A stretch of 54,539 nt of DNA from a virus (lineage: Duplodnaviria > Caudoviricetes): positions 1 to 54,539 of the IMG/VR virus record IMGVR_UViG_3300032214_000203; one strand, given 5' to 3'. Made by a program: the position numbers and the translations under genes. The stretch's first letter is position 1; each line of letters opens with the position of its first letter. Positions 302-44,109 of the stretch are shown here, piece after piece. Under the pieces are notes generated by a model. That model was given only the letters and a program-made list of their open reading frames with translations. It did no database searches and was not told the DNA's origin.

Positions 302-2221
302 ATGCCGCTCTCAAAGCTCCAGTTCCAGCCCGGCATCAACCGTGAATCAACCTCGTACAGCAATGAGGGTGGCTGGTTCGACGTGGACAAGATGCGCTTT
401 CGCGCTGGCTATCCAGAGAAGATTGGCGGTTGGGTTAAGCTGGGCCTGAAATCATTCTTGGGAACGTGCCGTGCTCTGCATGCGTGGAGAACGATTAACC
501 TAGACAACTATCTGGGTCTTGGCACGAACCTCAAGTACTACATCGAAGAAGGCGAAGGCTACTACGACATCACACCAATCAGGGCGACGACCACTGCCGG
601 GGATGTGACTTTTGCCGCAGTCAATGGGTCTTCTGTTCTTACGGTTTCTGACACGGCACATGGTGCTGTAGCTGGCGACTTCGTCACTTTCACGGGGGCC
701 ACCAGCTTAGGTGGGAACATCACAGCCGCAATCCTGAACCAAGAGTATCAGATTGCAACAATCGTCAACGACAACTCGTACACCATTGTTGCTCGTGCCG
801 TGAACACAGTTGCGGATATTACGGTTGATGGGCAGTACACACCCGTGCCTGTGCTTGCCAACGCATCTGATAGCGGAGACGGCGGCGCGGCTGTTGTCGG
901 TGCCTATCAGATCAATACTGGCATCGACACCTCAATTTATGGAAACGGCTGGGGCGCATCGTTTTGGGGCCGTGGCACTTGGGGTTCCGGTGCATCCATT
1001 GATGCGTTGACCGATACGCTCCGCATTTGGTCGCACGACAACTTTGGTGAAGACCTAATCATCAACGTCTATAACGGTGGCATCTATTACTGGGATGCTT
1101 CTGTAGCAACACCCCTTGCGCAGAGAGCCGTTCCATTGACGGCACTGAGCGGTGCCAGCAACCCGCCCACAGTGGCGGCTAAGATCATTGTCTCTGACGT
1201 GGACAGGCACGTTATTGCTTTCGGGTGCAACCCTCTTGGTTCGTCAACGCAAGACCCCCTGCTCATTCGATTCTCCGATCAGGAAAACGCGGCAGACTGG
1301 ACTCCGACAACGACGAACACGGCTGGTGATTTGCTTGTTGGTTCAGGGTCTCGGATCGTCGCTGCTGTTGAGACACGTCAGCAGATACTTGTGTTCACTG
1401 ACATCTCAGTTCACGCGATGCAGTACCTCGGCCCTCCGTTCACATTCGGCATCAACATGATGGCAGAAGGCACAACCATCGTTGGGCCAAACGCTGTTGT
1501 CGCCGTAGATGACAGTGTGTTCTGGATGGGGCAGACAGAGTTCTATGTCTACAACGGCTCTGTGCAAAAGCTTCCCTGTTCTGTCCGGGATTATGTTTTC
1601 TCAAACTTCAACACAGACCAGATCGAGAAGGTGTTCTGCTCGACCAATACATCCTTTGCGGAAATCTGGTGGTTCTATCCTTCTGCCAATAGCGACGTTC
1701 TAGACCGCTACGTCGTTTACAATTACGAACAGAACATCTGGTATTACGGATCGATAGCGCGCAGTGCGTGGATCGACCGTGGCGTTGTTGGCTTCCCAAT
1801 AGCTGCAGGCTTGGATGGTTATCTCTACTATCATGAAAACGGCTTTGATGATGGCAGCACATCGCCATCCTCGGCCATCAATGCCTACATTGAGTCAAGT
1901 CAGTTCGACATTGCTGATGGCAACAACTTCAGTTTCGTGAGCCGCCTGATCCCGGACATCACGTTTAGAAACTCTAGTGCGGCATCGCCATCTGTAGTGT
2001 TTACGATGAAGGCACGAAACTTCCCCGGAGGTGCCTACCTGCAGGATGACAGCGAGACTGTCACCAAGACCGCATCAGTGCCAGTCGAACAGTTCACCAA
2101 TCAGGTGTACGTCAGGCTGCGGGGCAGGTCTATGGCGTTGAAGGTTGAGTCTTTGACAAAAGGAATTGGCTGGAGACTAGGCTCTCCGAGGATTGATGTC
2201 AGACCTGATGGTAGGCGCTGA
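302..2221 (+). CDS. Tail tubular/nozzle (DNA stabilisation)-like virion protein
   Basis: 639 aa, beta-rich with propeller-like repeats (IRFSDQE, VFWMG, EIWWFYPS); lies before the ejection genes. Confidence 0.65.
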   Translation: MPLSKLQFQPGINRESTSYSNEGGWFDVDKMRFRAGYPEKIGGWVKLGLKSFLGTCRALHAWRTINLDNYLGLGTNLKYYIEEGEGYYDITPIRATTTAGDVTFAAVNGSSVLTVSDTAHGAVAGDFVTFTGATSLGGNITAAILNQEYQIATIVNDNSYTIVARAVNTVADITVDGQYTPVPVLANASDSGDGGAAVVGAYQINTGIDTSIYGNGWGASFWGRGTWGSGASIDALTDTLRIWSHDNFGEDLIINVYNGGIYYWDASVATPLAQRAVPLTALSGASNPPTVAAKIIVSDVDRHVIAFGCNPLGSSTQDPLLIRFSDQENAADWTPTTTNTAGDLLVGSGSRIVAAVETRQQILVFTDISVHAMQYLGPPFTFGINMMAEGTTIVGPNAVVAVDDSVFWMGQTEFYVYNGSVQKLPCSVRDYVFSNFNTDQIEKVFCSTNTSFAEIWWFYPSANSDVLDRYVVYNYEQNIWYYGSIARSAWIDRGVVGFPIAAGLDGYLYYHENGFDDGSTSPSSAINAYIESSQFDIADGNNFSFVSRLIPDITFRNSSAASPSVVFTMKARNFPGGAYLQDDSETVTKTASVPVEQFTNQVYVRLRGRSMALKVESLTKGIGWRLGSPRIDVRPDGRR

Positions 2222-2520
2222 TGTCAAACAGGCTTGTTCCAGCACCATACTTTCCAATTCCTCCGAGGGAGTACGATCAGAGGTACTTCAACGAGATCAT
2301 CCGTGCGTTCTCCCTATATCTAGATCAGTCACGCAATCCCGGTGAAGGCAGGAATACCTTTTCTGTTTTTACCAACCTGCAAACTGACGATTTTGGCTTA
2401 GAGACTGGGGCTATATTTAACCACGGTGGGTATGTTAAGATCACGCAGGAAAACACACCACACGTTCGTGGGTCGTCTGGCACTGGCCTTGTCGGCTCCG
2501 TTACCGTGACAACGACATAG
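2221..2520 (+). CDS. Hypothetical virion protein
   Basis: Start overlaps upstream stop (TGATG). The C-terminal VGSVTVTTT resembles the end of 48673..48987. Confidence 0.6.
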   Translation: MSNRLVPAPYFPIPPREYDQRYFNEIIRAFSLYLDQSRNPGEGRNTFSVFTNLQTDDFGLETGAIFNHGGYVKITQENTPHVRGSSGTGLVGSVTVTTT

Positions 2521-2550
2521 TCAGGTTGACGCCGGAAGAGGAAGAACATT

Positions 2551-3381
2551 ATGGGACTTGGCCGAGACAGAAGTGAAAGAAGTGCGCCCGGAGAGGGTAT
2601 TCGCGGCGTGGGTCAGGGCATTGCCAGAGACGTAGCCATGGGGTTTTCAGCGGGGTTTGGGAACCGCGACAAGCAGGCCTCAAACCTCTCAAACAGAGGC
2701 TATACTGACAAAGACATCCGGGACTACCAAGAGCGCACTGCAGCGACGATGGAACGGAATCGTCAAGAGCAGGCCCAGCGTGATCGTGGTGGCAGGGACA
2801 GGAATGAGAGTCTTCCGCCCCGTGTCACGTTGCCAGTTGAGCCGCCAATTACCACGATGCCCATCACACCGGGCCCAGTAACTCCGCCGCCACCGCCTCA
2901 GGTTACACCAGAGATGCGCCGTGAGGCTCTGCGTATTTTTGAATCTCAGCGTGGTGCTGGGCAAGTTCCGTATCAGATGATGCCGTATCAGCAGGGTCTT
3001 GGTAGCTTGCCAATGCAGCAGAATCCCAATGCAAGCCCTGCATTCCAGTACGCAGCTCAGAACTACTCGCGCCTTGGTGGCTCTCAGCGCCTGATGGATC
3101 GCCCCATGGAGATGATGAGCGTGGCTGAGCGCCAGCGAATCAACGAGATGGCGCAAGGTATGCTACCACAGACGCCGCCACAAGTCGGCCCAAATGAAGT
3201 TGCGTCGATACTGTCCAGAATGAGCGCGGGCAAGGGCGGCGGGATGGTTCAGCCTCAGACGCCACGACCTATGCCTCGGCCCAGCCAAGTAAACAATAGA
3301 CCATTGCCCGGTTCTTCTGGCGCAAACCCCAGCATGGGCGGTCTTATGAGCATGCGTAACCGCTTTATGCCGCCTCGATAA
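2551..3381 (+). CDS. Pro/Gln/Met-rich low-complexity hypothetical protein
   Basis: 276-aa ORF with GAGG upstream; fills the gap between genes. Confidence 0.55.
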   Translation: MGLGRDRSERSAPGEGIRGVGQGIARDVAMGFSAGFGNRDKQASNLSNRGYTDKDIRDYQERTAATMERNRQEQAQRDRGGRDRNESLPPRVTLPVEPPITTMPITPGPVTPPPPPQVTPEMRREALRIFESQRGAGQVPYQMMPYQQGLGSLPMQQNPNASPAFQYAAQNYSRLGGSQRLMDRPMEMMSVAERQRINEMAQGMLPQTPPQVGPNEVASILSRMSAGKGGGMVQPQTPRPMPRPSQVNNRPLPGSSGANPSMGGLMSMRNRFMPPR

Positions 3382-4724: not shown

Positions 4725-5612
4725 ATGACCCTGCTAACCGTCGATCAACTGCGCGCCATGATCCCGACCAACAAGGAGGTCGAGGAGTGGTGTGAAGCAT
4801 TGAATGAAATGCTGCCGAAGTATGGCATCACCACCGACAAGCGCATTGCCAGCTTTGTCAGCCAGTGCGCCCATGAGAGCATGGACTTCCGCGTGTTGGA
4901 GGAGAACCTGAACTACAAGGAGTCCACGCTGCTGCGCGTGTTCCCGCGCTACTTTGGCCCCGGCAAAGAGAACGCCGCCGAATATGCGGGCAAGCCTGAG
5001 AAGATTGCCAACTATGTGTACATGGATAAGAACCGCTCCAAGGCGGGTGCTTTAGGCAACCAAAAAGATGGGGATGGTTTTTTATTCAGAGGAAAAGGTC
5101 TGAAACAAGTTACTGGCCGTGCGAATACGACCGCATTCGGCAAGACCGTTGGCATGACCGCCGAGGAAGCTGCTGAGTATCTCCTGACCAAGAAGGGCGC
5201 ACTTGAGAGCGCGCTGTGGTTCTGGGGTAGCCGCAACCTGAACGAGGTCGCAGACACGGGCGACGTGACACGTCTCACCAAAATCATCAACGGAGGCGAC
5301 ATTGGCCTCGCGGATCGCAAGGCACGCTATGCCAAGGCCATGGCAGCTATGGGCGGGGCTGTCACTGCGCCCGCTCCTGCCGCCTCTCCAGCGGCCTCCG
5401 TTGGAACTCTACGCAAGGGCTCAAAGGGGGATGCTGTCAAGAAGATGCAGGCTGCGCTTGGCATCAAAGCTGATGGAGACTTTGGGCCCGGAACAGAAGC
5501 TGCCGTTAAGAAGTGGCAGGCTGCCAATGGGCTAACGGCTGATGGCATCGTTGGCCCAAGGACTATGGAGAAGCTGTTCAGCAAAGCGCCCAAACAACAA
5601 AGGTTCAAATGA
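4725..5612 (+). CDS. Endolysin, GH19 (chitinase class I-like) with C-terminal peptidoglycan-binding domain
   Basis: [33 protein letters not shown]; C-terminal LRKGSKG..V..MQ..L...ADGDFGPGT...DGIVGP.T. Confidence 0.9.
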
Positions 5613-10763: not shown

Positions 10764-13700
10764 GTGGGTATTATCAGCGTACAAAGCCCAACGACAGGCG
10801 GAAGCTACTCTGTAAGAATTGCAGGTGATGTTCCTACCGCAGAAGAACAGCAGCGCATTGACGCATATCTCGCGCAGCAAGACGCCACGTTTGCAAGAAC
10901 TGCTAGTCAATTGTTTCCTAGTGTCGCTCCGGCAGAAGCGCCAGAAGCCCCTGTTGAGGAAGATGACGGCACGGCTATTGGCCGTGGCTTTCAGCGTGGC
11001 CTCCAAGGCATCCGATCCCTCACTGGCACCACAATCGAAGAGGCTGGGCGCGCTCTTGGTTTGGAGGGTGTGCAGGAATTTGGCCGCGGCATGGAGACCG
11101 CTGCCGAAGAGGAGTTCCGCAAACTCCAAGAAGTCAGGGCGCGAACTGGGCTGTATGATGTAGAGGATTTAAGTAGCGCCCTCACCTACGGCGGTGAGAC
11201 ATTCGGCGAACAGGCTCCGATACTTGCACAGACACTGGCTGGCACTGCCGCTGGTGCTGCCATTGGTTCTGCCGTTCCAATCGTTGGCACGGGGATTGGT
11301 GCTGTTGTCGGTGGTGCAATAGCATCTCTGCCCCTTTTGTTTGGCGGGAACGTCCAGCGGCAAGAGGAGCAGGTAGCGGCTGGCGAATTGGATGAGGTCA
11401 GCGTCCAACGTGCACTTGCGACAGCCATTCCTCAAGCTGCACTCGAAGGTATCGCTGGTAGAATCCTTGCGTTTACACCGCTGCGTCCCGGCGTAGGCAA
11501 CGTTTGGGCAAGGGCTGGCAAGGGTGGCGCGGCTGGTGTCGTGGCTGAAGTCCCAACCGAAATTACACAGCAGTTGCTGGAGCGTGCGCAAGCTGGCCTG
11601 CCCATCGACAGCGATGATGCTATCAAAGAATACGTCGAAGCTGGCGTGGCCGCTGGTATTCTTGGTGGCCCGATTGGTGCCGCTGGTGGTGTGGTGCAGC
11701 GTGATGTTGCGCCCAAGGAACTCGATGATGACTACAAAGAGTTAGCCCTTGAGGGTGATCGCAGGATTAAGTTTGCCGAGGAAACGGAGCGGCAGATTGC
11801 AGAAGATCGTGCGAAGGCTCTTGCCTCCGCTGGCATTGACCCTGATGCACCGCTTGGCATTGAGGGGCCGCAGCAACGCCTTGCGCTTCCTGCGCCTGAG
11901 ACTGTTGATATTGCGCCCGAGACCGCAATCGCTGACGAAGAGTTCGCTAACCTGAGCTTTAACAAGGCTCAGTATGAGCGTGTGCTGCAGCAGGTAAAGG
12001 CCGACATTACCAGCGGGAAGAAGATCAACATCCCTGCAATCCAACAGCGCGTAAAGGCTGACATGCCTGATGTTACCGTACCCAAGGTGCGTGACATCAT
12101 GAAGGAGCTTCAGGCTCGCGACTTTGTCGTGGAAAACCCGGTAGCAAAAAAGAACAAGTACGTCGCCAAGAACGCTCTGGCACCGGAAGTAAACACGCCT
12201 GACGTTTCTTACCGCCGACAGATTGATACTGCCGCAGACTTCATCAAAGCGGATCAGTCAAAGCTGGAGCGCCTGCGCTATGACCTGCAGGCGGCAGAAG
12301 CATATGGTCGCGATCTAAATGGCAACAAGGTTACGCCGGATCAGGTGAACGCAGAGATCGCCCGCACAGAGCAGGGCATTGCGAAGAGCCAGCAAAGCAT
12401 TGAGCTTGCAAACCAGCGCCTCAAGACACTGGGCCGCGACACGCACGTCCCCCGCATTGAGAAGGTAGGCCTGCCGCCCAGCATGAAGGCTGTGCCTGTC
12501 GCTGAAGCCACACCGGATGCCCTTCGACCGCGCTTTGAGGCACAGCAGAGCGCCATTCGCGGTATGAAGGAGCAGATCACTTCCGTTAACAAACAGGTTA
12601 GCAAGCTCAACGAAAACGCCAAGAAGCGCACTTTAAGTTCTATTGAACTTGATCGCATGCAGAAGCTGCAACAGCAGCAAGCTGAGTTGTCTACGCGCCT
12701 TGGAGAGGCACAGGCAAACCTGAAAACACCTGAGAAGATTTTTCAGGAAGCAAAGGGTGAGCAATTCCGTGAGCAAGAACGGCAGCGTGAGATTGAGCGT
12801 AAGCTTATTGCAGCCCGCGCTCGTGCGGCAGCGGATCAGGTTAAAGCGCAGGAAGATCAGGGTGTGTCTCCGATCTCTTCAGCGTTCAATGCGAAGCAAG
12901 CGAATGTTCTCAAATCTCTCCAAACTCGACTGAACAATCTCGGCCTCAAAGATGTAAAGCTTGAGGGCGCACAAAGGATTGAGGGTGCTGAGGGCATGTT
13001 TGATCCAGTTACCAAGGTGCTTAGCCTTGGTATGGGCCTGTATGATCCGAAGATGACGGATCAACAGTTGTTCGATGCCACCTCTGAGGTGATGAACCAT
13101 GAGGTGGTTCATGCGCTGCGGGCTATGGGTTTGTTCAAGCCCAATGAGATGAAGACTCTCGAGCGTTTTGCAGAGAAGACCAAGTACGTCAAACGTACAA
13201 AAGACGGTACGCAAAAGCGGAACTACACATACCTTGACCGTGCAAATAAACTGTATCCAGACCTCACTCCGACACAGCAGAAAGAAGAAGCCTTTGCGGA
13301 AATGTTTCGCGACTACACGGCTGGCCGTCTGAAGCTTGGTGGTGGGCCGCGTGCTTTCTTCGAGAAGATCAAGAAGTTCTTCAAGGCTCTAATCGGTGCG
13401 AACGTTGATCAGGGCTTCACCCGTGTGGAGGATATCTTCCAAGGCATCCGCCGTGGTGAGATTGGTGCCCGTGATCGTGTGGCACCTGCCGCACCCGCTG
13501 CGCAACCTGCCGCCGCTGCGCCGATGCAGTCACGCATCCCTGCTACGGAAGAAGACATTCGCCCGCAGCAAGACATCCGCATGCCAATCAATCCAAACCT
13601 GCCGAACGATCAAGTGCGGGCACAAATTCAAAGGCTCACAGACCAGAACCGCCCCCTCGTTAAGCGGCTGATCAAGCGCATCGACGAGCGGTTCGGCACC

Positions 13701-16700
13701 AAGTCTGGCGACAATGTTAAAGACCTGTCCAAGGTCACGCAGAAGGCGCGTCGTCCCTCTATCTTGGCAGCTAAGCCATGGCATGATGTGTCGCACATCC
13801 GCGACAGCTACCGCTTCAAGACAGTGGTCGATGACTTCCGTAATGTGCCCGCCATCTTTGACGAGCTTTTGGCTGATGGCGTTGGCCTCGTGAAGATCGA
13901 TACCAACAAGCTATTCGCGCCGAAGGAGTGGGGCTGGCGCATCATTGCGTTCGATCTGCGCATGCCGAACGGCCAGCTTGTTGAGTGGTATTTGCCGCTC
14001 AAAGAACTTGAAGCAGAGAAGAAAGCCAAAGGCCACCTCATCTTTGAGGAGTGGCGGAACAAGACGCAGGAAGAGCTTTCCGCCCAGCGCGATGAATACT
14101 TCGCGTCAATCCGGCGCAGCTATGAGGGCTACGATCAAGCCTTCCAAGCAGCACTGGATCGCATGGGCGTCAGCCGTCAGGAAGCGGAAGCCTCTTGGAG
14201 AAGCGCAGAGAGTTCGTTGCTCGACGCTGCACGGAACGCCCGGAGATCGTCCGGCGTGGGGATTTCTTCCGCAGCAAGCGCAGAGACTGGCTTGACGGCA
14301 CCATCCATGGTGCGCACTGCAGTGGAGCCGTCCGCTCCGTATATGATGGCACGCCCAGTGCCGTCCTCGACCAGTGCAAAAGCTTCTGCCATTGTATCTA
14401 CCTCCGATGATTACATGCCGGACGCACCTGCAGAGGAGCGCCCCTTGTTCTCTAGGTTGCCTCGCTCCTCGATGGTAGCGGGCCTGCGGGACTTTATCAA
14501 AAATAATCCCGATGGTTTCACCATTGACTCTACCACATTCGACCCTGCCGCTGGCGGGTTTGTTGTGGCACCCCTAAAGGAAGCCGAAATAATTGTCGGA
14601 GAGTCCTTGCCAGAAGAGGTTCTACTAGGTTATATAGAGGATAACAAGGATATTGCAAGGGCAATCAATCGTCCCGTCTACTTGGGGGGATGGTTCGACA
14701 GCCAGAGCCAGCAGTACTTCTTGGACAACACACTGATTGTTCCCACTGCGGAAGAGGCGTTGTACATCGCCGAAGCTGCAGACCAGTTGGCAATCTTTGA
14801 CCTGAATAACTTTGAGGAGATCAGGACAAATGCAGGAATCGAACGACTCAAACAAAGTGGAACTTATCGGGGTGACGCCGCAGTCGGATACCAAAGAAAC
14901 CTTGCGGAGGTTGGTCGCCGCTTTGCGCAAGCAAGGGATCAACGTCGTGCCCGCATCCAAGAACAGCTTGTTGGAGGACTAGAGCGTCCGCGCCAGTCGC
15001 GCCTCGTTGTGCCGCTGACGCCCGAGCAGCGGTCGGCAAGCATCATCGACTACCTCAATCCGAACACTGGCAAGCCGCTCTTCAAGAAGAAGCCCGGAAG
15101 TGAAACGCTGGTAAGCTTTGCGAATAAGTTGCTGGAGCTTCGTGGCACCCGCACATACGACATCGTTAACTCTGAAGCGGATCGTCGTGAGATTGCGCAG
15201 ATCATGGCTGCAGAGGCAGAGGCTGCGCTTCTGTCGAGCCGCGATGCGCTGGGCTGGTATGACAGCACACTGAAGTTGGCGAAGCAAATCCTGTACCCTG
15301 TGTACCCAGAGATTTCGCCCACTCGTCCCGACGGCACCCCCAACCGGATGCACGATCCTGCAGCGGAGCATGCCTTCGACTACGCTACGGCAGTCACATC
15401 CAACGGCATGGCTGTCGTGGACAACTACCAGTTTGCGTCAGAGCAGTACGATGCGTGGAAGGCGAGCCCCGATGGCAAGTTCCCTGTCGTTGGCAAGGGT
15501 GATCAGGGCGGCTCAATGCTGTCTGCGTTTGAGTTCTGGAATGCGCTTGTCGATGTAGGGTACGACTCAAATCAAATCTCTCAGCTACTCACAACGCAGT
15601 TGCCACGCTCAGAGGTTAACAACATTCTGAAGGAAGTCTTTGGTGTTCGTCGTCTGGCAGACCTGCCAGTTCAAGCTGACACCAAGGAAGAGGCTGACAC
15701 CGTTGTGTCGGTGGCATACGTCATTGGCCCGAAGATTGGCAACGGCTTCTACCAAAACCTGCGTGGGAACTTCAACCCTCTGACAATGGATCGCTGGTGG
15801 ATGCGCTTTGTAAATCGCATCACCGGGAACCCGCTTGTGATCCACACCGAGGAGAGCCTTGGCAATACGTTCAACAAGCTGTGGAACTACGTCAGCAATC
15901 CTGATGGCCTGACAAATATGGAGCGCGACATTCTTCGTCGTGCCCAAGAAAACCTGAACATGACCAAGCTGGAAAGAAGTGACATTGCACTTTTGTCTAG
16001 CGAGATGGACAAGGTTTGGAACAAGGAGTTCTTCAACAAGGCCTACAACGACAAGCTCCGCGACCTTCAGAACGAAGGCATGGACTTTGAGATTGTGAAA
16101 GGTTCTGTGCGCGGCCCGGATGCCGAGCGCGTCAAGCGCCTTGCTCGTGAGGCTCGCCCCGAAAAGCCAGCCATGTCCAAGGCGGCGACCACCCTTGTGA
16201 AGAAACTGAAGCCGTCTCTTGAGGAGGCACCTCGCAACGCACCTGATCGCACCGCTATGCGTGATGCAGCAAATCGTGCCCGCGAAATCCTAAGACGTGA
16301 CCTTGGCGTCGAGCTTACCAATGCCGACTTCCAAGCCCTCATGTGGTACGCAGAGAAGCGCATCTTTGATGCTGGCGGCGTGAAGCGTGGGCGCGGTGAG
16401 GACAATGACTATGCGGATGGTGCGATTGCCATCGCCAAAGCGAAGGGAATATCCGATGCAAAAATTGAAGCCGCACTCCCCGAGGCAGAACGAGGCCGAG
16501 TCCGTGGTGTCGAATCTCAACTCGCAGGAGATCAAGATGCTGGCGGCAGGGTTGGCGAACTGGTTCGAGAACCAGAAGCGGGAGACTTCTTCGCCCCAAG
16601 AAGACTGACGCTCGTCCCTGAGGATGACACTATCGAAGCGAACATGACGCCCAGAGAACGGGCTGAGGTTCGTCAGGCACTGCAGGGCGCAGAGATCGAT

Positions 16701-19700
16701 CAGGAGATGCCGAGGCAGATGTACTCGCGCATGCCCGTGGCTGAGGCATACATGCCCACTCGTGCGCCTGTAGACAACAAGGCTGGCCCGACACCGATCT
16801 ACGGTTCCATCATGGAGCGTGGCCGCTTGTTGCCCGTTGTTCTGCCGAAGGGTTCGCACCGCGTCTATGAGAGCGGTATCGAGGTTGGCAATGGACTGTT
16901 CCATATCCAACAGCGTCAGCACGACAGGGAGCTTGTCGAGAACTCCAAGTACAAGCGCGTAGAGAATGCCATCTATGACCTGATGCGCCGTTGGCAGAAT
17001 CAAGGCTATGAAGATGGCGAGTCTGTCGTCGGCTACAACAGCCGCGACGGTATTGTGCTTGAATGGCGGAACAACCTTGCCTTCAGTTCTCCTCCCCTCC
17101 TTCTCGTTCTTGAGCGTGGCAGTGAGGTGCAAGGCGCTCCACTGCGTGATGCCTACTACGTCAAGACATTCTTCCCCGTCCTGAAGAAGAAGGATCGCGC
17201 AGCACCAGAGCGCAAGGCACAACAGCAGCGTCTCTATAGCCGCCTGTATTCCACCACTGCGACACTGGCACCACAGGTCAAAGCCAAGACCCTGAAGCTG
17301 GACTATGCGCGTGCGGCAGACTTCCTTGCAAAGGGTCTGCGCGTTGTGGTCACGCCCGACAAAGCGCAAGCCGCAGCCGACACGATCCTTCGCAAGTTCC
17401 AAGACAACATGCTGCCCGTTGGCCGCATGATCCAAGAGCTACAGGCCAAAGGCCTGACGATTACCGACGCCATGGATACCTATCTGAAGGAAGAGTTGTA
17501 TCACGGCGTTGTTGGCAACGAACTGAACCGTCGTGAAGAAGGCATCTACAAGGACGCTCTCAATGCAGTGAAGGCACTGAATGTGAATGCTGGCATGCTC
17601 GATGGGCTGCAGCGTGCATCTGATGCTGCGTCTGGCACTGGGGATGGCTTTGTGAAACAGGCGCGCCAGTCGGCTGGCAGCGACAAGCTGGCCTTGGCTG
17701 AAGCGTACCTCTACGCCAAGCATGCGAAGGAGCGGAATGCCTACATCCGTACCATCGATCCTAAAAACGACAGTGGCTCAGGCATGCAAGACGCAGAGGC
17801 TGACGCTATCCTGCGTTGGTTCTCTAGCTTGGATGCTTCCAATGCTGCGGCAATAGCCAACCTCAACACTGCAGCCCGTGGCATTGTGGCTGACACCAAC
17901 CGGGTTCGCGTTGACAGCGGGCTGATCCCTGATCAATTCGACCAGATTGTGGATGAGGACGGTCAGGTGATTAACCGCCCAGAGTACGACTTCTTCGTGC
18001 CTCTGCGTGGTATCTACGACCCTGAGGCTGCGGAGTCTGACGGCACCACTAGCGCCGCTGGCGGTCAGCTTTTTGGCGGAAGGGGTCGCCCCGATCCTCG
18101 TGCCCTTGGCCGCTACAAGTATGCCACTGACGTACTGGCAAACCTGATTAATCAGAACCAACAATCTGTATCTCGTGGCGAGCGCAACAAGGTCGGCCAA
18201 TCGTTCTTGGAGTTGCTTCGTGCAAACCCATCAATGACAAAGGCATACGCAGAAATTCTGACGAAGACGCCCAAGCGCCGCGCACTGAGGAGCGGGCGTG
18301 TGCGTGAGATCACTAACTTCGCTGCGGCACAAGACCCGAACATCTTTGTCGTGAAGGAAGACGGCAAGGATGTGTACGTCGAGCTGTTCAACCCGAACCT
18401 TGGCGCTGCGCTCAAGGGTGACAACGGCGTTGGCGCTGGCGCTCTAGGCTACATCGTGCGGTCTATGGGCATGGTGAACCGCTACCTGTCCAACATCAAC
18501 ACGTCCTATAACCCCGAGTTCTTCATCACCAACTTCCTTCGCGACTTGCAAGCTGCAGGCGTAAACATCCAACAGTTCGACGAGCAGGGTCTGACAACTC
18601 AGATCGTCAAGGATGTGCGCAAGGCTCTCGCTGGGATCAAGCGTTCCATCCGCAACAAGGACGACTCGTCCGAGTGGTCTCAGATTTACAGAGACTTTGT
18701 GAATGCTGGCGGTCAGAACGTCACGAACCAGATGTCTACCGTCGCAGATCAGATGGATAACATCCGCAGTCTGGTCGGGGATATCTCCGACAAGGGTGCC
18801 CGTGGCAGGTGGAACCAAGTTAAAAACAGCTTCGTCGGTAAAGGCGCTGGCTCTCTTCTGAGCTTTATCGAAGACTACAACACGGTGGTCGAAAACGGCA
18901 TCCGCGTTGCGACGTACAAGACGCTGCTCGACCGTGGGTTCACGCGCGAGAGGGCGGCACAGGCGGCTCGCAACGTGACTGTGAACTTCGCCAAGGGTGG
19001 CGAGTACAAGTCATTCCTGAATGCGTTCTACCTGTTCTACAACGCGTCTCTGCAGGGTTCGTTTGCCCTTCTGAATGCGGCACTGCGTTCGCGTAAGGTG
19101 CAGGGTATCTGGGCTGGCGTGATTGCTGCGGGCTTCCTGCAGGATCAACTGAATGCCTTGCTGTCCGATGAGGACGAAGACGAAGACAAGCAGTATGACA
19201 AAATTCCAGACTACATTCTGGAACACAACTTCATCCTGCCCGATCCGTTCGGCTTTACAGATCGCTCTTACATCGCCATCCCCATGCCGTATGGCCTGAA
19301 CATGGCGCACAACATTGGTCGCGCAACAAGCCGTGCATTGCGCGGTGAGTACGATGCAGGCGAGGCGACGGGCAGCATCGTTGGGAATATCGTTGACACC
19401 ATCAACCCGCTTGGTGGGTCTGAAAGCTTTGCAAACTTTGTTGCGCCAACCGTGGTCGATCCGTTCATTGACATCATCGAGAACGAAGACTTCGCGGACA
19501 AGCCGATCTTCAAGGAAGCATTCCCCGGAGATCGCGGGCCCGACAGTCAAAGGTACTGGGCAACGACAAACCCATCTGCAATCTGGGTGGCGCAGAACAT
19601 CAACTCTCTCACTGGTGGCACCTCTGCTATCCCCGGCTTCATCGATGCATCTCCAGATGTCCTGAACTTCTGGTTGGAGTTTGCGACAGGTGGTGTCGGT

Positions 19701-20126
19701 CGCTTCGTGCAGCGCACGGCAGAACTTCCTGTCCGCGTTTACGAAGAGGGTCTGAATGACGAACTCTACCGAGAGGTGCCGTTCGTTCGTAAGATCATTG
19801 GCAGCGTATCGACTCGCGAAGACTACGGTCGCTACATCGAAAAGCGCAATGCGATCTTGCTGGCAGGGGATGAAATCAAAGAGGCCATCGACAATCAGGA
19901 TCGTGAGCGCGCGCTTGCTGCTCGTGAAGAGTTTGCCGAAGAGCTTCGCTATCTTCCCCGCGTTCGTGCAATCGACAACGCGATCCGTCAGGTGAACCAG
20001 CAAATGAACAAGCTGCGCGACAACCGCAACATGCCCGATGAGCAAAAGCAGGCTATCATGGATCGTCTCGATGAGCGCAAGCAGGCGCTGATCTTGCGTG
20101 GCAATCAAATCCTGATGGACTACTGA
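10764..20126 (+). CDS. Giant polyvalent internal virion protein (metallopeptidase, RelA/SpoT-like, SAM-lyase-like, HhH-like, PBECR-like, LPD38-like domains)
   Basis: 3120-aa ORF. HEVVH..EEAFAE; VK...K..K..D..R..GW..VE..GH; GGW.D..YFLD..Q.AIFDL; GPK.....NL.G....TMD.W..QA..W; G.GLFHI...H; C-terminal EN..R......NF...G....N.FYLFYNA..QG..IPMPYG. Confidence 0.85.
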   Translation: MGIISVQSPTTGGSYSVRIAGDVPTAEEQQRIDAYLAQQDATFARTASQLFPSVAPAEAPEAPVEEDDGTAIGRGFQRGLQGIRSLTGTTIEEAGRALGLEGVQEFGRGMETAAEEEFRKLQEVRARTGLYDVEDLSSALTYGGETFGEQAPILAQTLAGTAAGAAIGSAVPIVGTGIGAVVGGAIASLPLLFGGNVQRQEEQVAAGELDEVSVQRALATAIPQAALEGIAGRILAFTPLRPGVGNVWARAGKGGAAGVVAEVPTEITQQLLERAQAGLPIDSDDAIKEYVEAGVAAGILGGPIGAAGGVVQRDVAPKELDDDYKELALEGDRRIKFAEETERQIAEDRAKALASAGIDPDAPLGIEGPQQRLALPAPETVDIAPETAIADEEFANLSFNKAQYERVLQQVKADITSGKKINIPAIQQRVKADMPDVTVPKVRDIMKELQARDFVVENPVAKKNKYVAKNALAPEVNTPDVSYRRQIDTAADFIKADQSKLERLRYDLQAAEAYGRDLNGNKVTPDQVNAEIARTEQGIAKSQQSIELANQRLKTLGRDTHVPRIEKVGLPPSMKAVPVAEATPDALRPRFEAQQSAIRGMKEQITSVNKQVSKLNENAKKRTLSSIELDRMQKLQQQQAELSTRLGEAQANLKTPEKIFQEAKGEQFREQERQREIERKLIAARARAAADQVKAQEDQGVSPISSAFNAKQANVLKSLQTRLNNLGLKDVKLEGAQRIEGAEGMFDPVTKVLSLGMGLYDPKMTDQQLFDATSEVMNHEVVHALRAMGLFKPNEMKTLERFAEKTKYVKRTKDGTQKRNYTYLDRANKLYPDLTPTQQKEEAFAEMFRDYTAGRLKLGGGPRAFFEKIKKFFKALIGANVDQGFTRVEDIFQGIRRGEIGARDRVAPAAPAAQPAAAAPMQSRIPATEEDIRPQQDIRMPINPNLPNDQVRAQIQRLTDQNRPLVKRLIKRIDERFGTKSGDNVKDLSKVTQKARRPSILAAKPWHDVSHIRDSYRFKTVVDDFRNVPAIFDELLADGVGLVKIDTNKLFAPKEWGWRIIAFDLRMPNGQLVEWYLPLKELEAEKKAKGHLIFEEWRNKTQEELSAQRDEYFASIRRSYEGYDQAFQAALDRMGVSRQEAEASWRSAESSLLDAARNARRSSGVGISSAASAETGLTAPSMVRTAVEPSAPYMMARPVPSSTSAKASAIVSTSDDYMPDAPAEERPLFSRLPRSSMVAGLRDFIKNNPDGFTIDSTTFDPAAGGFVVAPLKEAEIIVGESLPEEVLLGYIEDNKDIARAINRPVYLGGWFDSQSQQYFLDNTLIVPTAEEALYIAEAADQLAIFDLNNFEEIRTNAGIERLKQSGTYRGDAAVGYQRNLAEVGRRFAQARDQRRARIQEQLVGGLERPRQSRLVVPLTPEQRSASIIDYLNPNTGKPLFKKKPGSETLVSFANKLLELRGTRTYDIVNSEADRREIAQIMAAEAEAALLSSRDALGWYDSTLKLAKQILYPVYPEISPTRPDGTPNRMHDPAAEHAFDYATAVTSNGMAVVDNYQFASEQYDAWKASPDGKFPVVGKGDQGGSMLSAFEFWNALVDVGYDSNQISQLLTTQLPRSEVNNILKEVFGVRRLADLPVQADTKEEADTVVSVAYVIGPKIGNGFYQNLRGNFNPLTMDRWWMRFVNRITGNPLVIHTEESLGNTFNKLWNYVSNPDGLTNMERDILRRAQENLNMTKLERSDIALLSSEMDKVWNKEFFNKAYNDKLRDLQNEGMDFEIVKGSVRGPDAERVKRLAREARPEKPAMSKAATTLVKKLKPSLEEAPRNAPDRTAMRDAANRAREILRRDLGVELTNADFQALMWYAEKRIFDAGGVKRGRGEDNDYADGAIAIAKAKGISDAKIEAALPEAERGRVRGVESQLAGDQDAGGRVGELVREPEAGDFFAPRRLTLVPEDDTIEANMTPRERAEVRQALQGAEIDQEMPRQMYSRMPVAEAYMPTRAPVDNKAGPTPIYGSIMERGRLLPVVLPKGSHRVYESGIEVGNGLFHIQQRQHDRELVENSKYKRVENAIYDLMRRWQNQGYEDGESVVGYNSRDGIVLEWRNNLAFSSPPLLLVLERGSEVQGAPLRDAYYVKTFFPVLKKKDRAAPERKAQQQRLYSRLYSTTATLAPQVKAKTLKLDYARAADFLAKGLRVVVTPDKAQAAADTILRKFQDNMLPVGRMIQELQAKGLTITDAMDTYLKEELYHGVVGNELNRREEGIYKDALNAVKALNVNAGMLDGLQRASDAASGTGDGFVKQARQSAGSDKLALAEAYLYAKHAKERNAYIRTIDPKNDSGSGMQDAEADAILRWFSSLDASNAAAIANLNTAARGIVADTNRVRVDSGLIPDQFDQIVDEDGQVINRPEYDFFVPLRGIYDPEAAESDGTTSAAGGQLFGGRGRPDPRALGRYKYATDVLANLINQNQQSVSRGERNKVGQSFLELLRANPSMTKAYAEILTKTPKRRALRSGRVREITNFAAAQDPNIFVVKEDGKDVYVELFNPNLGAALKGDNGVGAGALGYIVRSMGMVNRYLSNINTSYNPEFFITNFLRDLQAAGVNIQQFDEQGLTTQIVKDVRKALAGIKRSIRNKDDSSEWSQIYRDFVNAGGQNVTNQMSTVADQMDNIRSLVGDISDKGARGRWNQVKNSFVGKGAGSLLSFIEDYNTVVENGIRVATYKTLLDRGFTRERAAQAARNVTVNFAKGGEYKSFLNAFYLFYNASLQGSFALLNAALRSRKVQGIWAGVIAAGFLQDQLNALLSDEDEDEDKQYDKIPDYILEHNFILPDPFGFTDRSYIAIPMPYGLNMAHNIGRATSRALRGEYDAGEATGSIVGNIVDTINPLGGSESFANFVAPTVVDPFIDIIENEDFADKPIFKEAFPGDRGPDSQRYWATTNPSAIWVAQNINSLTGGTSAIPGFIDASPDVLNFWLEFATGGVGRFVQRTAELPVRVYEEGLNDELYREVPFVRKIIGSVSTREDYGRYIEKRNAILLAGDEIKEAIDNQDRERALAAREEFAEELRYLPRVRAIDNAIRQVNQQMNKLRDNRNMPDEQKQAIMDRLDERKQALILRGNQILMDY
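14177..14392 (-). CDS. Nested antisense small protein, candidate antitoxin of the RelA/SpoT-like module
   Basis: 71 aa; GGAGGT 7 nt before ATG; not in codon register with the host gene; the host frame is Ser/Ala-rich linker here. Confidence 0.6.
   Translation of the reverse strand: MAEAFALVEDGTGRAIIYGADGSTAVRTMDGAVKPVSALAAEEIPTPDDLRAFRAASSNELSALLQEASAS
14830..14982 (+). CDS. Nested +1-frame small protein following the SAM-lyase-like module
   Basis: MQESNDSNKVELIGVTPQSDTKETLRRLVAALRKQGINVVPASKNSLLED*, 50 aa; GAGGAG at 14814-14819. Confidence 0.5.
   Translation: MQESNDSNKVELIGVTPQSDTKETLRRLVAALRKQGINVVPASKNSLLED
16456..16608 (+). CDS. Nested +1-frame small protein following the HhH-like module
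   Basis: MQKLKPHSPRQNEAESVVSNLNSQEIKMLAAGLANWFENQKRETSSPQED*, 50 aa; AAGGGA 7 nt before ATG. Confidence 0.45.
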   Translation: MQKLKPHSPRQNEAESVVSNLNSQEIKMLAAGLANWFENQKRETSSPQED

Positions 20127-37993: not shown

Positions 37994-38117
37994 ATTACGC
38001 GCGCGCGTTAGTAGTTATATACTTAGGGCCGTGAGGTTTGGGTTTCTCCCACCCGTGCCTCATAGGCAGGCAGGCGCACCCCACCCGCGTCTGTCTGCCG
38101 CCACAAAGGAGAGCCAC

Positions 38118-39626
38118 ATGAGCAGTCTTGCCGCACTGAAGGATAAGATCGGCACCCTCCCACTGGAGGAGCAAGCCAAGCTCCTTGATCTCCTGACGGA
38201 GCTTGAGGAGGCTGAGAACAAAACTGCCGCGAAGGATAACTTCATGGCATTCGTTAGGATGATGTGGCCGAGCTTTATCGGCGGCAAGCATCACAAGACA
38301 ATGGCCGAGGCCTTCGAGCGTGTTGCGCGCGGAGAGTTGAAGCGTCTGATCATCAACATGCCACCTCGACACACCAAGTCAGAGTTTGCATCCTACCTTC
38401 TGCCCGCTTGGTTTCTTGGGAAGTTCCCAGAGAAGAAGGTTATTCAGACGGCACACACAGCCGAACTGGCCGTCGGCTTTGGTCGTAAGGTAAGGAACCT
38501 GATTCAGTCAGAAGACTTTAACAAGGTTTTCTCTGGCATCACGCTGTCGTCAGACTCAAAGGCCGCTGGCCGTTGGAACACCAACAAGCGTGGCGACTAC
38601 TTCGCTATCGGTGTCGGTGGTGCCGTCACAGGTAAAGGCGCAGACCTTCTGATCATCGACGACCCGCACTCCGAACAAGAGGCACAGCAGGGACAGTTCA
38701 ACCCTGAAGTCTATGACCGGGTCTATGAATGGTACACCTCCGGCCCACGTCAGCGTCTCCAGCCCGGTGGTGCCATCATCATCGTTATGACTCGATGGGC
38801 AAAGCGAGACCTGACAGGTCAGATTCTGAAATCCACGGGAGACCGTAAGGGCATGGATGACTGGGAGGTCATTGAGTTCCCGGCAATCATGCCATCAGGA
38901 AATCCGCTCTGGCCCGAGTTCTGGTCGTTGGAAGAACTGGAGGCACTGAAGGCAGAACTTTCTATCTCGAAGTGGTCTGCCCAATACCAACAAGACCCAA
39001 CCTCTGAAGAGGGGGCACTCATCAAGAGGGACTGGTGGCGCGAGTGGCCGGAAGACGAACCCCCCTCTTGCGAAGCTATCATTCAGTCTTGGGACACGGC
39101 ATTCTTGAAAACGCAGCGAAGCGACTACAGCGCCTGCACGACGTGGGGTGTGTTCTATCACCCGGACAAGAATGGCAAGTCTATGCCAAACATTATCCTG
39201 CTTGATGCCTACAAGGAGAAGCTTGAGTTCCCAGACCTGAAGCGCGCAGCCTACGATAAGTTCAAAGAGTTTGACCCCGATCAGATGATTGTTGAAAAGA
39301 AAGCATCTGGTGCTCCGTTGATCTTTGAGCTTAGGGCCATGGGCATTCCAGTGACAGAGTTCACGCCCTCACGGGGGCAAGACAAGATCGCGAGGGTGAA
39401 CGCCGTTACAGACCTGTTCGCCAGCGGAGCGATATGGTATCCTCCCACGCGATGGGCAGAAGAGGTCATCGAGGAATGCGCCGCGTTTCCTTCTGGGGAG
39501 CACGATGACTTTGTGGACTCGACCACTCAAGCTCTGTTAAGGTTCAGGCAAGGTGGCTGGGTGAGAGCCGAATCTGATGACTGGGATGACGAGCCGAAAT
39601 ATCGCAGGCCAGTCGAGTACTACTAG
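38118..39626 (+). CDS. terL: Terminase large subunit
   Basis: NMPPRHTKS, GKGADLLIIDDP, MTRW, QSWDTA, HDDFVDSTTQA; ATG 38118 after AAGGAG. Confidence 0.95.
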   Translation: MSSLAALKDKIGTLPLEEQAKLLDLLTELEEAENKTAAKDNFMAFVRMMWPSFIGGKHHKTMAEAFERVARGELKRLIINMPPRHTKSEFASYLLPAWFLGKFPEKKVIQTAHTAELAVGFGRKVRNLIQSEDFNKVFSGITLSSDSKAAGRWNTNKRGDYFAIGVGGAVTGKGADLLIIDDPHSEQEAQQGQFNPEVYDRVYEWYTSGPRQRLQPGGAIIIVMTRWAKRDLTGQILKSTGDRKGMDDWEVIEFPAIMPSGNPLWPEFWSLEELEALKAELSISKWSAQYQQDPTSEEGALIKRDWWREWPEDEPPSCEAIIQSWDTAFLKTQRSDYSACTTWGVFYHPDKNGKSMPNIILLDAYKEKLEFPDLKRAAYDKFKEFDPDQMIVEKKASGAPLIFELRAMGIPVTEFTPSRGQDKIARVNAVTDLFASGAIWYPPTRWAEEVIEECAAFPSGEHDDFVDSTTQALLRFRQGGWVRAESDDWDDEPKYRRPVEYY

Positions 39627-42350: not shown

Positions 42351-42719
42351 ATGTACACGGGTGAGACAACGACAGACGAGCGCGTAGCGTCTAAACTACC
42401 GCAGCCTCAAGGATACAAAGTCCTTATTGGCGTCCCAGAAATCAGCGAAAAAACCGAAGGTGGTGTCTTCATGCCGGATGGCTTGAAGTCTGCTGAAGAG
42501 ACAGCGTCAATTATTGGCTTTGTCATGAAGGTTGGGCCTGATGCCTACAAAGACGAAAACAAGTTCCCGAACGGCGCTTACTGCAAAGAAGGCGACTTCG
42601 TGATCTTCCGTTCGTACTCTGGCACGAGATTCAAGATTCATGGGAAAGAGTTTCGACTCATCAACGACGACACCGTGGAAGCGGTTGTTGACGATCCAAG
42701 GGGGTATAGCCGAGCATGA
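42351..42719 (+). CDS. groES: Co-chaperonin GroES-like protein
   Basis: P.GYKVLI, EKTEGGVFMP, VMKVGPDAY, GDFVIF..YSGT, LINDD.V.AVV. Confidence 0.88.
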   Translation: MYTGETTTDERVASKLPQPQGYKVLIGVPEISEKTEGGVFMPDGLKSAEETASIIGFVMKVGPDAYKDENKFPNGAYCKEGDFVIFRSYSGTRFKIHGKEFRLINDDTVEAVVDDPRGYSRA

Positions 42720-43669
42720 ACCGCGCACTTGAACAGGACGATTTTGAATTTGAGGAAGAGACCTCCTCAAAAGTTCAATCGAACAAATCCGAAGACGAAG
42801 ACTTTGAGATCGAGGTAATCGATGACACGCCCGAGCCGGATCGCGGCAAGGCGCGTCGTGCGGATGATACCGAGGCTCAGGTTCCAGAAGACGATGAGAT
42901 TCAGTCTTACAGCGAGGGTGTGCAGAAGCGCATCAAGCAGTTGAAGTTTGAATACCATGAAGAGCGCCGCCGCAAAGAAGAGGCCGCACGTCTTCAAGAA
43001 GAGGCACTGCGCTACGCCCAGCAGGTTAAAGCTGAGAACGACAAGCTTCGCAAAACGCTTGAAGAGGGCGAAGGCGTTCTTGTCAATCAAGCTAAGGGCC
43101 GCGTTGCTGCCGAGCTGGACAAGGCAAAGGCCGCCTACAAGGCAGCCTATGAGGCTGGCGACTCAGATGCTCTGATTGAGGCACAGGAGCGTTTGACCAC
43201 GCTTCAGGCTGAGAAGATGCGGTATGACAGCTATCGTCCGCAACCGCGTCAGGCTCAAACTCCCGCACCGGAATATACAAAGCCGCAGCCACAGCCGCCT
43301 CGTCCAGACGAGAAGGCTTTGTCTTGGGCGCAGAAGAACACTTGGTTCGAGCGCGACTCAGAGATGACTGGCTACGCTTATGGGCTGCACGAGAAGCTCG
43401 TAAGAAGTGGAGTTGATCCGCGAAGCGATGAGTATTACAATCAAATTGACCGTGCGGTTCGCCGCATGTTCCCGGATAGGTTTGACATTGGGAAAATTGA
43501 GGAAGCAGCACCCCATCGTCAGGCTGGTAACGTGGTCGCCCCCGCCGCTAGAAGCGGAAAGAAACCACGCAAAGTGCAACTGACCTCGACGCAGGTCGCT
43601 CTCGCCAAGCGGCTTGGTCTGTCAAATGAACAATATGCGGCGCAATTGCTGAAGGAAATGAACAAATGA
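42716..43669 (+). CDS. Scaffolding protein (putative)
   Basis: Acidic N-terminus, long coiled coil, C-terminal LT..QVALAKRLGLS.EQYA; before the capsid genes. Confidence 0.7.
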   Translation: MNRALEQDDFEFEEETSSKVQSNKSEDEDFEIEVIDDTPEPDRGKARRADDTEAQVPEDDEIQSYSEGVQKRIKQLKFEYHEERRRKEEAARLQEEALRYAQQVKAENDKLRKTLEEGEGVLVNQAKGRVAAELDKAKAAYKAAYEAGDSDALIEAQERLTTLQAEKMRYDSYRPQPRQAQTPAPEYTKPQPQPPRPDEKALSWAQKNTWFERDSEMTGYAYGLHEKLVRSGVDPRSDEYYNQIDRAVRRMFPDRFDIGKIEEAAPHRQAGNVVAPAARSGKKPRKVQLTSTQVALAKRLGLSNEQYAAQLLKEMNK

Positions 43670-44109
43670 CGGATCGCACCCCACGCAATGTTGAAACGCG
43701 CGAAGCGGAAAAACGTAAGGTGACATGGGAAAGACCTTCGATGCTGCCTACCCCCGAACCTCGCGATGGGATTTCCTACCGCTGGATTCGCACATCCACT
43801 TTGGGTAACGCAGACAACACGAATGTCTCTTCCAGATTTCGTGAGGGCTGGACACCTGTCCGTGCAGCTGATCATCCAAACCTTCAAATTGTGTCCGACA
43901 TCGACTCTCGATTTAAGGACAACATTGAGGTCGGTGGGTTGCTGCTTTGTCAGAACGCTACCGAAAAAGTTGAGGCTCGGATTGAAGCCCAGCGCACAAT
44001 GGCCGCAAACCAAATGAGTGCTGTGGACAACAACTACCTCAAGAACTCAGACCCTCGCATGCCCGTCCTGAAACCAGAACGTGCTACGCGAACTTCGTTT
44101 GGTAAGTGA
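43666..44109 (+). CDS. Head-associated hypothetical protein
   Basis: YRWIR...N...R.REGW.PV...IEVGGLLLC. Confidence 0.7.
   Translation: MTDRTPRNVETREAEKRKVTWERPSMLPTPEPRDGISYRWIRTSTLGNADNTNVSSRFREGWTPVRAADHPNLQIVSDIDSRFKDNIEVGGLLLCQNATEKVEARIEAQRTMAANQMSAVDNNYLKNSDPRMPVLKPERATRTSFGK

Follow-up and report, generated by a model that had tools for sequence, protein, structure and literature searches.

Polyvalent proteins, which are widespread in phages and conjugative elements, were defined by Iyer, Burroughs, Anand, de Souza and Aravind (Iyer et al., 2017; PMC5512222), whose main text names a zincin-like metallopeptidase (MPTase) as their commonest domain, lists LPD38 and RelA/SpoT as domains of the phage type only, and proposes that the MPTase frees the remaining domains, either in the capsid or once they have been injected, an arrangement that the authors liken to the polyproteins of RNA viruses. 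This processing is so far a prediction; the main text gives no motif for the sites, and 'cleavage site' appears there only in the title of a reference (supplements aside). Another giant LPD38 protein, gp47 of phage phi24B, is a 2811-amino-acid (aa) LPD5/LPD1/LPD38/MuF-C protein that, according to the available text of a preprint, is abundant in virions and is a proposed ejection protein (bioRxiv 10.64898/2026.04.10.717836). Here, we examine a 3120-aa protein, P0001, encoded by a giant open reading frame (ORF) of an uncultivated phage, in the IMG/VR record IMGVR_UViG_3300032214_000203 (54,539 bp, near-complete, completeness estimate 92%; hereafter the window, meaning the whole record), and we describe a short Ser-Arg-aliphatic motif that accompanies the limits of its modules and may mark the places where the protein cuts itself.

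The giant protein is a new member of the polyvalent class. Zincin-like, RelA/SpoT-homologue (RSH; Z 13.5), HhH-GPD-like (Z 8.9) and BECR-like (Z 7.0) folds occur in its one ORF, and the LPD domain of a phage-type polyvalent protein is present as Pfam LPD38 (PF18857) at aa 2808-2990 (E 1.8e-37; bit score 129.7, cut-off 27). Like the proteins of Iyer et al., it is a giant phage protein in which several unrelated enzymatic domains are combined with an embedded HExxH MPTase, LPD38 and RelA/SpoT; unlike the account in their main text, there is a defined junction motif here, and the peptidase and modules 3–5 are not recognised by Pfam. Searches of the whole protein and of seven pieces of it against Pfam returned LPD38 alone, with no match for the peptidase, RelA/SpoT, S-adenosylmethionine (SAM) lyase or PBECR families. 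It resembles gp47, as described in the available preprint text, in being a giant LPD38 protein with a metallopeptidase domain, but gp47 has a MuF-C family peptidase and other domains and was not among the tblastn matches of our central region.

A Ser-Arg-aliphatic motif recurs at or near module limits

The first-pass annotation of this DNA had reported [QFY]SR[ILM] at five places in the giant protein, and both the sites and their coordinates proved correct (Table 1). The motif begins at residues 922, 1229, 1411, 1987 and 2158, and the protein, which has 11 xSRx tetrapeptides in total, contains no other SR[ILMV]. Its conservation at the protein level likewise stands, since the Ser-Arg codons of sites 1–5 differ as reported (TCA CGC, TCT AGG, TCG CGC, TCG CGC and AGC CGC) and their nucleotide context is not shared. 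A six-frame scan of the window returned one further in-gene [QFY]SR[ILM], NYSRLG at nucleotide (nt) 3064, which is probably a chance occurrence, and four more that all lie in frames overlapping other genes. The ORF that holds NYSRLG (2551-3381, + strand, 276 aa, in the virion block) is of low complexity, rich in Pro, Gln and Met, and has no PHROG or Pfam match. Two nucleotide-level explanations were considered and rejected: translation starting internally at the Ile, Leu or Met codon that follows Ser-Arg (ATC, TTG, CTC, ATG and CTG, with no consistent Shine-Dalgarno-like sequence at the right spacing), and DNA-level recombination sites (the five sites have no common nucleotide context).

We placed the sites on two AlphaFold2 (AF2) models built from 37-row alignments, one of aa 671-1429 (mean predicted local distance difference test (pLDDT) 69) and one of aa 1400-2212 (mean pLDDT 83). 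Sites 1, 2, 3 and 5 each stand at the C-terminal end of a low-confidence linker (pLDDT below 50), directly before the next folded domain, so that four of the five fall within the 11.6% of modelled residues that have pLDDT<50 (binomial P 8e-4). The sites are conserved as well: S923 and R924 (site 1) and F1229 and R1231 (site 2) are invariant in alignment A1, Ser1412 (site 3) is invariant in 37/37 diverse sequences, and S2159 (site 5) is invariant in A1 and nearly invariant in A4. Site 4 lies 45 aa downstream of the disordered aa 1921-1941; in the BECR-like module, it stands after the N-terminal helix and ahead of the beta core. The description of the motif as marking 'every domain boundary' was therefore overstated: four sites do lie in inter-module linkers, whereas site 4 is in an ordered coil and several boundaries have no motif, namely that between the N-terminal 700 aa and the peptidase, the disordered aa 1921-1941 in the fourth module, and any within the 960-aa C-terminal part.

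Some further sequence features accompany these sites. The motif-less disordered stretch at aa 1921-1941 (16521-16586; DQDAGGRVGELVREPEAGDFF) is acidic and Gly-rich and stands between module 4 and an ordered segment that packs with module 5. 'LTPEQR' follows site 3 (15009-15029) and 'MTPRER' precedes site 4 (16632-16652), both being probably helix N-caps at module starts; 'TPE' is the top reduced-alphabet 3-mer in the giant protein and, once the peptidase motifs are set aside, also shows the strongest enrichment of any non-Cys tripeptide in 120 distant relatives (201 observed vs 57.7 expected).

Placement in flexible linkers, together with the concerted variation described below, would be expected of any motif with a common reader, and one alternative is that the motif is never cut and instead acts as a docking or handling signal for each module, by guiding threading through portal and tail, by binding a chaperone or a partner in the capsid interior, or by pausing ejection. 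A very long ejected protein must cross the tail channel unfolded, and site 4 is modelled packed against its domain rather than free, both of which would suit such a signal. However, this alternative offers no reason for a constant, intact peptidase directly upstream of site 1, it leaves unexplained why the motif coincides exactly with the starts of exchangeable enzymatic modules that have different targets, and no candidate reader is known. We consider it unlikely.

The motif follows the junctions of a mosaic family

Homologues were gathered by a word-indexed search with aa 880-2200, which scored 8000 candidates and returned 221 proteins at E<=1e-3; the best 120 of the 221 were examined. Within these 120, the peptidase is present in 115, module 2 in 65, module 3 in 78, module 4 in 120, module 5 in 119 and the C-terminal part in 119; at least four of the five without a peptidase (P0035, P0091, P0096 and P0110) begin inside a later module and are among the shorter proteins. 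A tblastn search of 50,697 phage records with aa 880-2212 matched three records, in module 4 only (28% of the query, 29% identity).

The annotation had proposed a scan of homologues against domain boundaries, and in that scan the motif does follow the junctions. The sharing of a motif at product junctions that characterises a polyprotein is seen at the five sites here and, over 34 non-redundant clusters (85% identity in module 4), at 107/141 junctions for the strict motif S[RK][ILMV] (161/5000 control windows) and at 129/141 for a relaxed motif (463/5000 control windows). Expressed as density, S[RK][ILMV] occurs at 14.6 per 1000 aa in junctions (125 in 8544 aa) vs 1.37 per 1000 aa in module interiors (76 in 55466 aa). 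These junctions are homologous to one another, and the counts therefore measure conservation and not independent events. Most lineages keep x-[KR/ML]-[FYQ]-S-R-[LIVM] at equivalent junctions; the logo reads R/P/Q at -4, P/V/R at -3, K/R/M/L at -2, F/Y/Q at -1, then S, R>K, L>I>V>M and P/T, and at greater depth the family retains [KR]-[FYQL]-S-x-aliphatic as its core. The linkers otherwise vary, but in sequences down to 35% identity the Ser does not change.

Rearranged homologues bear on what the motif belongs to. Deletion of modules 2 and/or 3 leaves sites back to back in P0005, P0016, P0047 and P0050 (for example, at 922 and 987 in P0005, 951 and 983 in P0016, and 907 and 921 in P0050). Modules that the giant protein lacks have the motif on either side in P0033, P0041, P0045, P0051/55 (zeta-toxin), P0102, P0112, P0115 and P0118, and the replacement zeta-toxin modules of P0019-23, P0051 and P0055 are likewise motif-flanked. 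P0117-P0120 have module 5 ahead of module 4, with R-[YM]-S retained at the junctions so created. At site 1, the upstream half (AAPMQSR) goes with the peptidase, whereas what comes after Ser-Arg depends on which module follows (P0005, P0016, P0019, P0025 and P0047). Moreover, a stand-alone homologue of module 3 (P0269, 161 aa, on a 44.8-kb contig) begins with the first residues of the fold and lacks the motif at both ends, which argues that the motif is not part of the module-3 fold.

Several other traits of these rearrangements were recorded. A zeta-toxin-type kinase module (PF06414) occupies the RelA/SpoT slot in P0019-P0023, P0029, P0051, P0055, P0058 and P0115. Part of the module-2 tail survives deletion or replacement of the RSH domain in P0005 and P0019, and the last ~33 residues of that disordered tail are retained in P0019-P0023 and P0029. 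The BECR-like module of P0117-P0120 is accompanied by a short 'LTPxQ...V' helix that immediately precedes its R-Y-S motif.

Lineage-specific variants of the motif change in concert within a protein: S-K-L stands at all junctions of P0100 and P0116, K-x-S-[AMQ]-[IVL] is used in P0056, and R-[YMQL]-S-[IVM] in P0117, P0119 and P0120. A motif that is selected at the protein level, that is tied to module limits and not to folds, and that changes in concert implies, as far as sequences can tell, a single common reader. This is the part of the earlier interpretation, which had offered either cleavage sites or secretion/threading signals, that is supported: conservation, swapped modules and concerted variants together indicate a functional signal in the protein at module boundaries, and an embedded, catalytically intact peptidase in 115 of the 120 homologues fits cleavage as the reading of it.

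It could be argued that no reader is needed, the motif being a by-product of module shuffling, in which recombination preserves the junction sequence, or of a habit of capping helices or linkers. Modules are indeed frequently gained, lost and re-ordered, with break points at or near the motif, and the pattern is not statistically outstanding in the single protein. However, since the five sites have no common nucleotide context and their Ser and Arg codons differ, homologous recombination has nothing to use, and neither the invariance of the Ser in otherwise variable linkers, nor the concerted change of variants, nor the stand-alone module without the motif is what such a by-product would lead one to expect. 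We regard this explanation as very unlikely.

A zincin-like peptidase lies just upstream of the first site

The HEVVH sequence of the peptidase occupies aa 779-783 (nt 13098-13112) on model helix 96-117, and a conserved EEAxAEMxRD helix lies at aa 841-850, with E841, E842 and E846 on model helix 166-182. The order of elements assigned by DSSP (H40-55, E62-67, E74-77, E82-86, H96-117 and H123-135 in model numbering) is a helix, three strands, the HExxH helix and later helices. H779, E780, H783, E795, E841, E842 and E846 are invariant in 37 sequences, and we infer that the third zinc ligand is a Glu on the later helix, one of several that could fill the role. VIA-align matched the module to zincins at middling Z scores, which are taken together with the HExxH motif (2ejq Z 7.0, anthrax lethal factor (LF) 1yqy Z 6.9, 3e11 Z 6.9, Wss1 5xbn Z 6.3 and PPEP-3 9g0j Z 6.2). 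The catalytic residues are intact, and the module is predicted to be proteolytically active. A HMMER search with aa 691-924 showed how widely this peptidase is used: 1174 cluster representatives were found at E<=1e-3, mostly proteins of 2000-4400 aa, and among the matches listed HExxH is kept in 111/111 distant representatives of at least 1500 aa.

We favour, with confidence about evenly poised between right and wrong, the reading that the five motifs are autoprocessing sites of this embedded peptidase, because an intact zincin peptidase is the only constant candidate in the same polypeptide and always lies just upstream of the first site. Under this reading, the giant protein would be a virion-borne polyvalent protein built like a polyprotein. 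Its conserved N- and C-terminal parts, which may serve packaging, ejection and membrane functions, would bracket the zincin-like peptidase and a set of exchangeable effectors, namely a RelA/SpoT-type nucleotidyltransferase, module 3, an HhH-glycosylase-like module and a BECR-like putative RNase, with a short motif ahead of each module ([P/R]-x-[QFY]-S-R-[ILM] here and [KR]-[FYQL]-S-[RK/x]-aliphatic family-wide). The first cut would be made in cis, ~144 residues after HExxH, and the others then in cis or in trans, either within the capsid or once the protein has been ejected into the host. This would yield aa 1-924, 925-1231, 1232-1413, 1414-1989, 1990-2160 and 2161-3120, that is, an N-terminal scaffold-plus-peptidase, four effectors and the C-terminal LPD38 part. 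A cut after Arg fits what is seen at site 1, whose upstream half is kept with the peptidase and whose continuation beyond Ser-Arg varies. Zincins usually prefer a hydrophobic P1' residue, and from this habit and the start points of the swaps we guess the scissile bond to be Arg|aliphatic.

Several observations weigh against autoprocessing, or at least against a simple form of it. To begin with the single protein, composition leads one to expect 0.22 [QFY]SR[ILM] and 1.9 SR[ILM], and five or more of the former have a nominal Poisson P of 3.7e-6; however, in an unbiased reduced-alphabet scan of 1,331 3-mers in the giant protein, the motif was not among the best 12 listed, and in a scan of 14,641 4-mers the narrower S-[KR]-[ILMV]-P ranked 7th (P 1.4e-3). 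Because the pattern was chosen post hoc and the unbiased scan ranks others higher, the count in a single protein cannot settle the matter; chance does not account for the position of the motif in linkers or for its conservation in homologues. Structurally, the AF2 model and VIA-align indicate that a cut at site 4 would sever part of the module 5 fold, and the N-terminal boundary of the peptidase and the disordered aa 1921-1941 lack the motif. Finally, processing of gp47 is not mentioned in the available text of the phi24B preprint (10.64898/2026.04.10.717836).

The wider family adds to this side of the balance. In 120 distant peptidase-bearing proteins of at least 1000 aa, compared with the reversed pattern and 20 shuffles, [QFY]SR[ILM] is only ~2-fold enriched (41 observed, 21 reversed, 20.9 ± 3.7 shuffled), [RK]xS[RK][ILMV] occurs 84 times forward vs 80 times reversed, and S[RK][ILMV] is found 100-220 aa after HExxH in only 41/111 distant representatives, ~15 of which have it at the same 123-154-residue distance in a similar context. 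A search for enriched tripeptides over 120 distant representatives was dominated by conserved domain motifs and was uninformative for a linker motif. The weak enrichment in distant relatives means that the exact motif belongs to this closer family, and wider clades may use other motif variants, or none. A comparison of peptidase columns with the class of the +1 residue found no discriminating column; for example, D825 is replaced by Q in P0117/119/120, where +1 is non-basic, and also in P0118, where it is Arg. A complex prediction for the peptidase (aa 700-905) and a 35-aa site-3 peptide scored 0.02 against a mark of 0.32; this gave no verdict and counts neither way on binding.

The missing covariation between peptidase and sites also bears on a different alternative, that the motifs are cleavage sites read by another protease, be it one of the host after ejection or an undetected head or maturation protease of the phage, with the zincin acting on host proteins or on the cell wall. 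Concerted lineage-specific variants could track host switches equally well, and the virion module has ORFs without assignable function (42716-43669, 43666-44109 and 44155-44766). Effector roles of this kind have been entertained before, in that the main text of Iyer et al. (PMC5512222) allows MPTases as effectors on host proteins, and the phi24B authors, in the available preprint text, suggest a peptidoglycan role for the gp47 metallopeptidase (10.64898/2026.04.10.717836). On the other hand, the peptidase is a constant core module that always stands just upstream of the first site, and the nearest folds to it are protein endopeptidases and not wall hydrolases of the LAS type. No other protease family was detected among the 20 virion-module ORFs scanned; for prohead proteases in particular, none was found by PHROGs among these 20, nor by Pfam among 10 of them. 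The capsid protein, at 302 aa, appears to lack the kind of long N-terminal extension for which a maturation protease would be needed. A separate protease therefore seems to us distinctly unlikely, and autoprocessing by the embedded zincin-like peptidase remains the reading that we prefer.

Folds of the modules and genome setting

The folds of the modules were sought on the two AF2 models with Foldseek against the PDB (E<=1e-3) and with VIA-align. Module 2 matched 8vx3 (Foldseek E 1.3e-5; VIA-align 8vx3_A Z 13.5, rmsd (root-mean-square deviation) 3.1, 185 residues aligned) and 6ewz (Foldseek E 3e-5), without a Pfam match. Module 3 had no match in Pfam or in PDB sequences; its best ESM Atlas score, 0.83 to unnamed viral clusters, is a lead only, and the fold searches barely probed it, as other domains filled the match lists. 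For the aa 1400-2212 model, which holds modules 4 and 5, Foldseek returned nothing from the PDB at E<=1e-3, and VIA-align aligned module 4 with DNA glycosylases at Z 8.0-8.9 (3n0u_A Z 8.9, 7ugk_A Z 8.7 and 7rdt_A Z 8.6). Module 5 was aligned with the contact-dependent inhibition (CDI) toxin 7m5f_C (Z 7.0, 112 residues aligned, model 566..741), in an alignment that begins at the helix upstream of site 4, and with BrnT 3u97 (Z 4.6); it has no Pfam PBECR match. A profile of 15 full-length homologues searched against PDB sequences produced coiled-coil noise only (E>=0.02, profile positions 473-580). Of the domain labels given in the first-pass annotation, peptidase and RelA/SpoT are borne out, HhH-like and PBECR-like agree with fold matches at middling Z, and SAM-lyase-like found no support in Pfam, PDB sequences or the Atlas.

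Table 1. Features of the giant ORF and of selected genes in the window.
Feature	Coordinates (nt)	Strand	Residues (aa)	Basis or remark
Giant ORF P0001, phage-type polyvalent, predicted virion protein	10764..20126	+	3120 in all	
N-terminal region	10764..12890	+	1-709	No motif; Gly/Ala-rich hydrophobic ~aa 150-330, then long helical coiled-coil-like sequence
Zincin-like metallopeptidase module	12891..13463	+	710-900	AF2 topology, HEVVH, fold matches
Site 1, QSRI	13527..13538	+		AAAAPMQSRIPATEE; in pLDDT<50 segment aa 907-933
Module 2, RelA/SpoT-type (small alarmone synthetase-like) nucleotidyltransferase fold	13605..14249	+	948-1162	Foldseek, VIA-align
Module 2 tail, disordered, Ser/Ala/Pro-rich	14235..14456	+	1158-1231	pLDDT<50, model residues 488-561; 74 residues; ends in site 2
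Site 2, FSRL	14448..14459	+		AEERPLFSRLPRSSM; end of disordered module-2 tail
Module 3, alpha/beta domain	14484..14969	+	1241-1402	AF2 model; function unassigned
Site 3, QSRL	14994..15005	+		GLERPRQSRLVVPLT; in pLDDT<50 segment aa 1401-1416
Module 4, large helical, HhH-GPD DNA-glycosylase-like core	15018..16520	+	1419-1919	AF2 pLDDT ~90
Site 4, YSRM	16722..16733	+	1987-1990	EMPRQMYSRMPVAEA; coil, pLDDT ~80
Module 5 beta core, BECR/RelE-like fold	16758..17195	+	1999-2144	VIA-align; N-terminal helix ~aa 1963-1971, upstream of site 4
Site 5, YSRL	17235..17246	+		AQQQRLYSRLYSTTA; in pLDDT<50 segment aa 2149-2168
C-terminal conserved part	17244..20123	+	2161-3120	No motif; LPD38 nt 19185-19733; PHROGs
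Lysozyme-like gene with peptidoglycan-binding domain	4725-5612			PHROGs/Pfam scans
Large terminase	38031-39626			PHROGs/Pfam scans
Portal	39637-42081			PHROGs/Pfam scans
HK97-type capsid protein	44778-45686		302 in all	PHROGs/Pfam scans

The giant ORF stands at the end of a structural block, after the lysozyme-like gene and unassigned virion genes, and the window also encodes tail and virion genes. PHROG 14770/616/10691 match the C-terminal part of the protein, and phrog_6958 ('virion structural protein') matches its N-terminus at aa 43-314; gene context and this last match lead us to predict that the protein is packaged in the virion and delivered to the host.

Elsewhere in the window, the three unassigned + strand ORFs between portal and capsid genes (317, 147 and 203 aa in order) match only PHROGs of unknown function or nothing, and one of them (within 42716-44766) could be a scaffold or an undetected protease. 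A 122-aa ORF in the interval between the portal and head genes (42351-42719, +) matches a GroES co-chaperonin family (phrog_3188, E 6.5e-14). At the end of the tail block, a 458-aa ORF (53085-54461, +) has RCC1-like repeats (phrog_4219, E 3.4e-51, in four stretches) and may be a beta-propeller receptor-binding protein.

Discussion

Our literature search, supplements aside, found no paper naming a cleavage motif for polyvalent or ejection proteins, and the junction motif is, as far as that search shows, a new feature of polyvalent proteins. It makes the processing hypothesis of 2017 directly testable. If the autoprocessing reading is true, the motif would provide a rule for parsing giant phage proteins into functional units, including modules without a recognisable family, it would explain how modules are swapped so freely, and it would offer a compact protease-and-site pair for the release of cargo proteins. 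Should cleavage fail as an explanation, the motif would still be a useful marker of module limits for annotation.

A broader proposal, to which we would give somewhat less than an even chance, is that a large and mostly uncultivated group of phages carries a plug-and-play, self-cutting effector polyprotein, made of an ejection scaffold, a zincin and interchangeable host-directed enzymes, whose [KR]-[FYQL]-S-[RK]-aliphatic cut sites co-evolve with the protease. Any new effector placed between two sites would in that case be set free automatically once in the host, and the sites would constitute the first defined cleavage code for polyvalent proteins.

How would such a system compare with proteins whose processing is understood? 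Prohead proteases such as T4 gp21 and phiKZ gp175 cut packaged proteins at short motifs ending in Glu, a separate enzyme removing targeting peptides. The likeness is that short consensus motifs would serve as cut sites in phage proteins carried in the head; the differences are that no such protease was detected in the virion-module ORFs scanned here, that the candidate enzyme lies within its own substrate, and that the motif is Ser-Arg-aliphatic. The polyproteins of picornaviruses (3C) and potyviruses (NIa) are single translation products in which an embedded protease is combined with a short conserved motif at each domain junction, and our protein resembles them in these three traits. Those viruses, however, are eukaryotic, their proteases are chymotrypsin-like or papain-like, and their products serve replication and structure and are not host-directed effectors.

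MARTX toxins, in turn, have conserved translocation parts at both termini, around a cassette of exchangeable effectors and an internal cysteine protease, activated by inositol hexakisphosphate, that cuts unstructured linkers between the effectors after delivery. Here the comparison is one of analogy only, as there is no sequence relation, the protease is a zincin and not a cysteine protease, and a predicted phage virion protein stands against a bacterial toxin acting on eukaryotic cells; in both, nevertheless, conserved ends bracket exchangeable effectors and an internal protease. If the self-cutting polyprotein exists as proposed, it would be the phage counterpart of the MARTX toxins and of the RNA-virus polyproteins alike.

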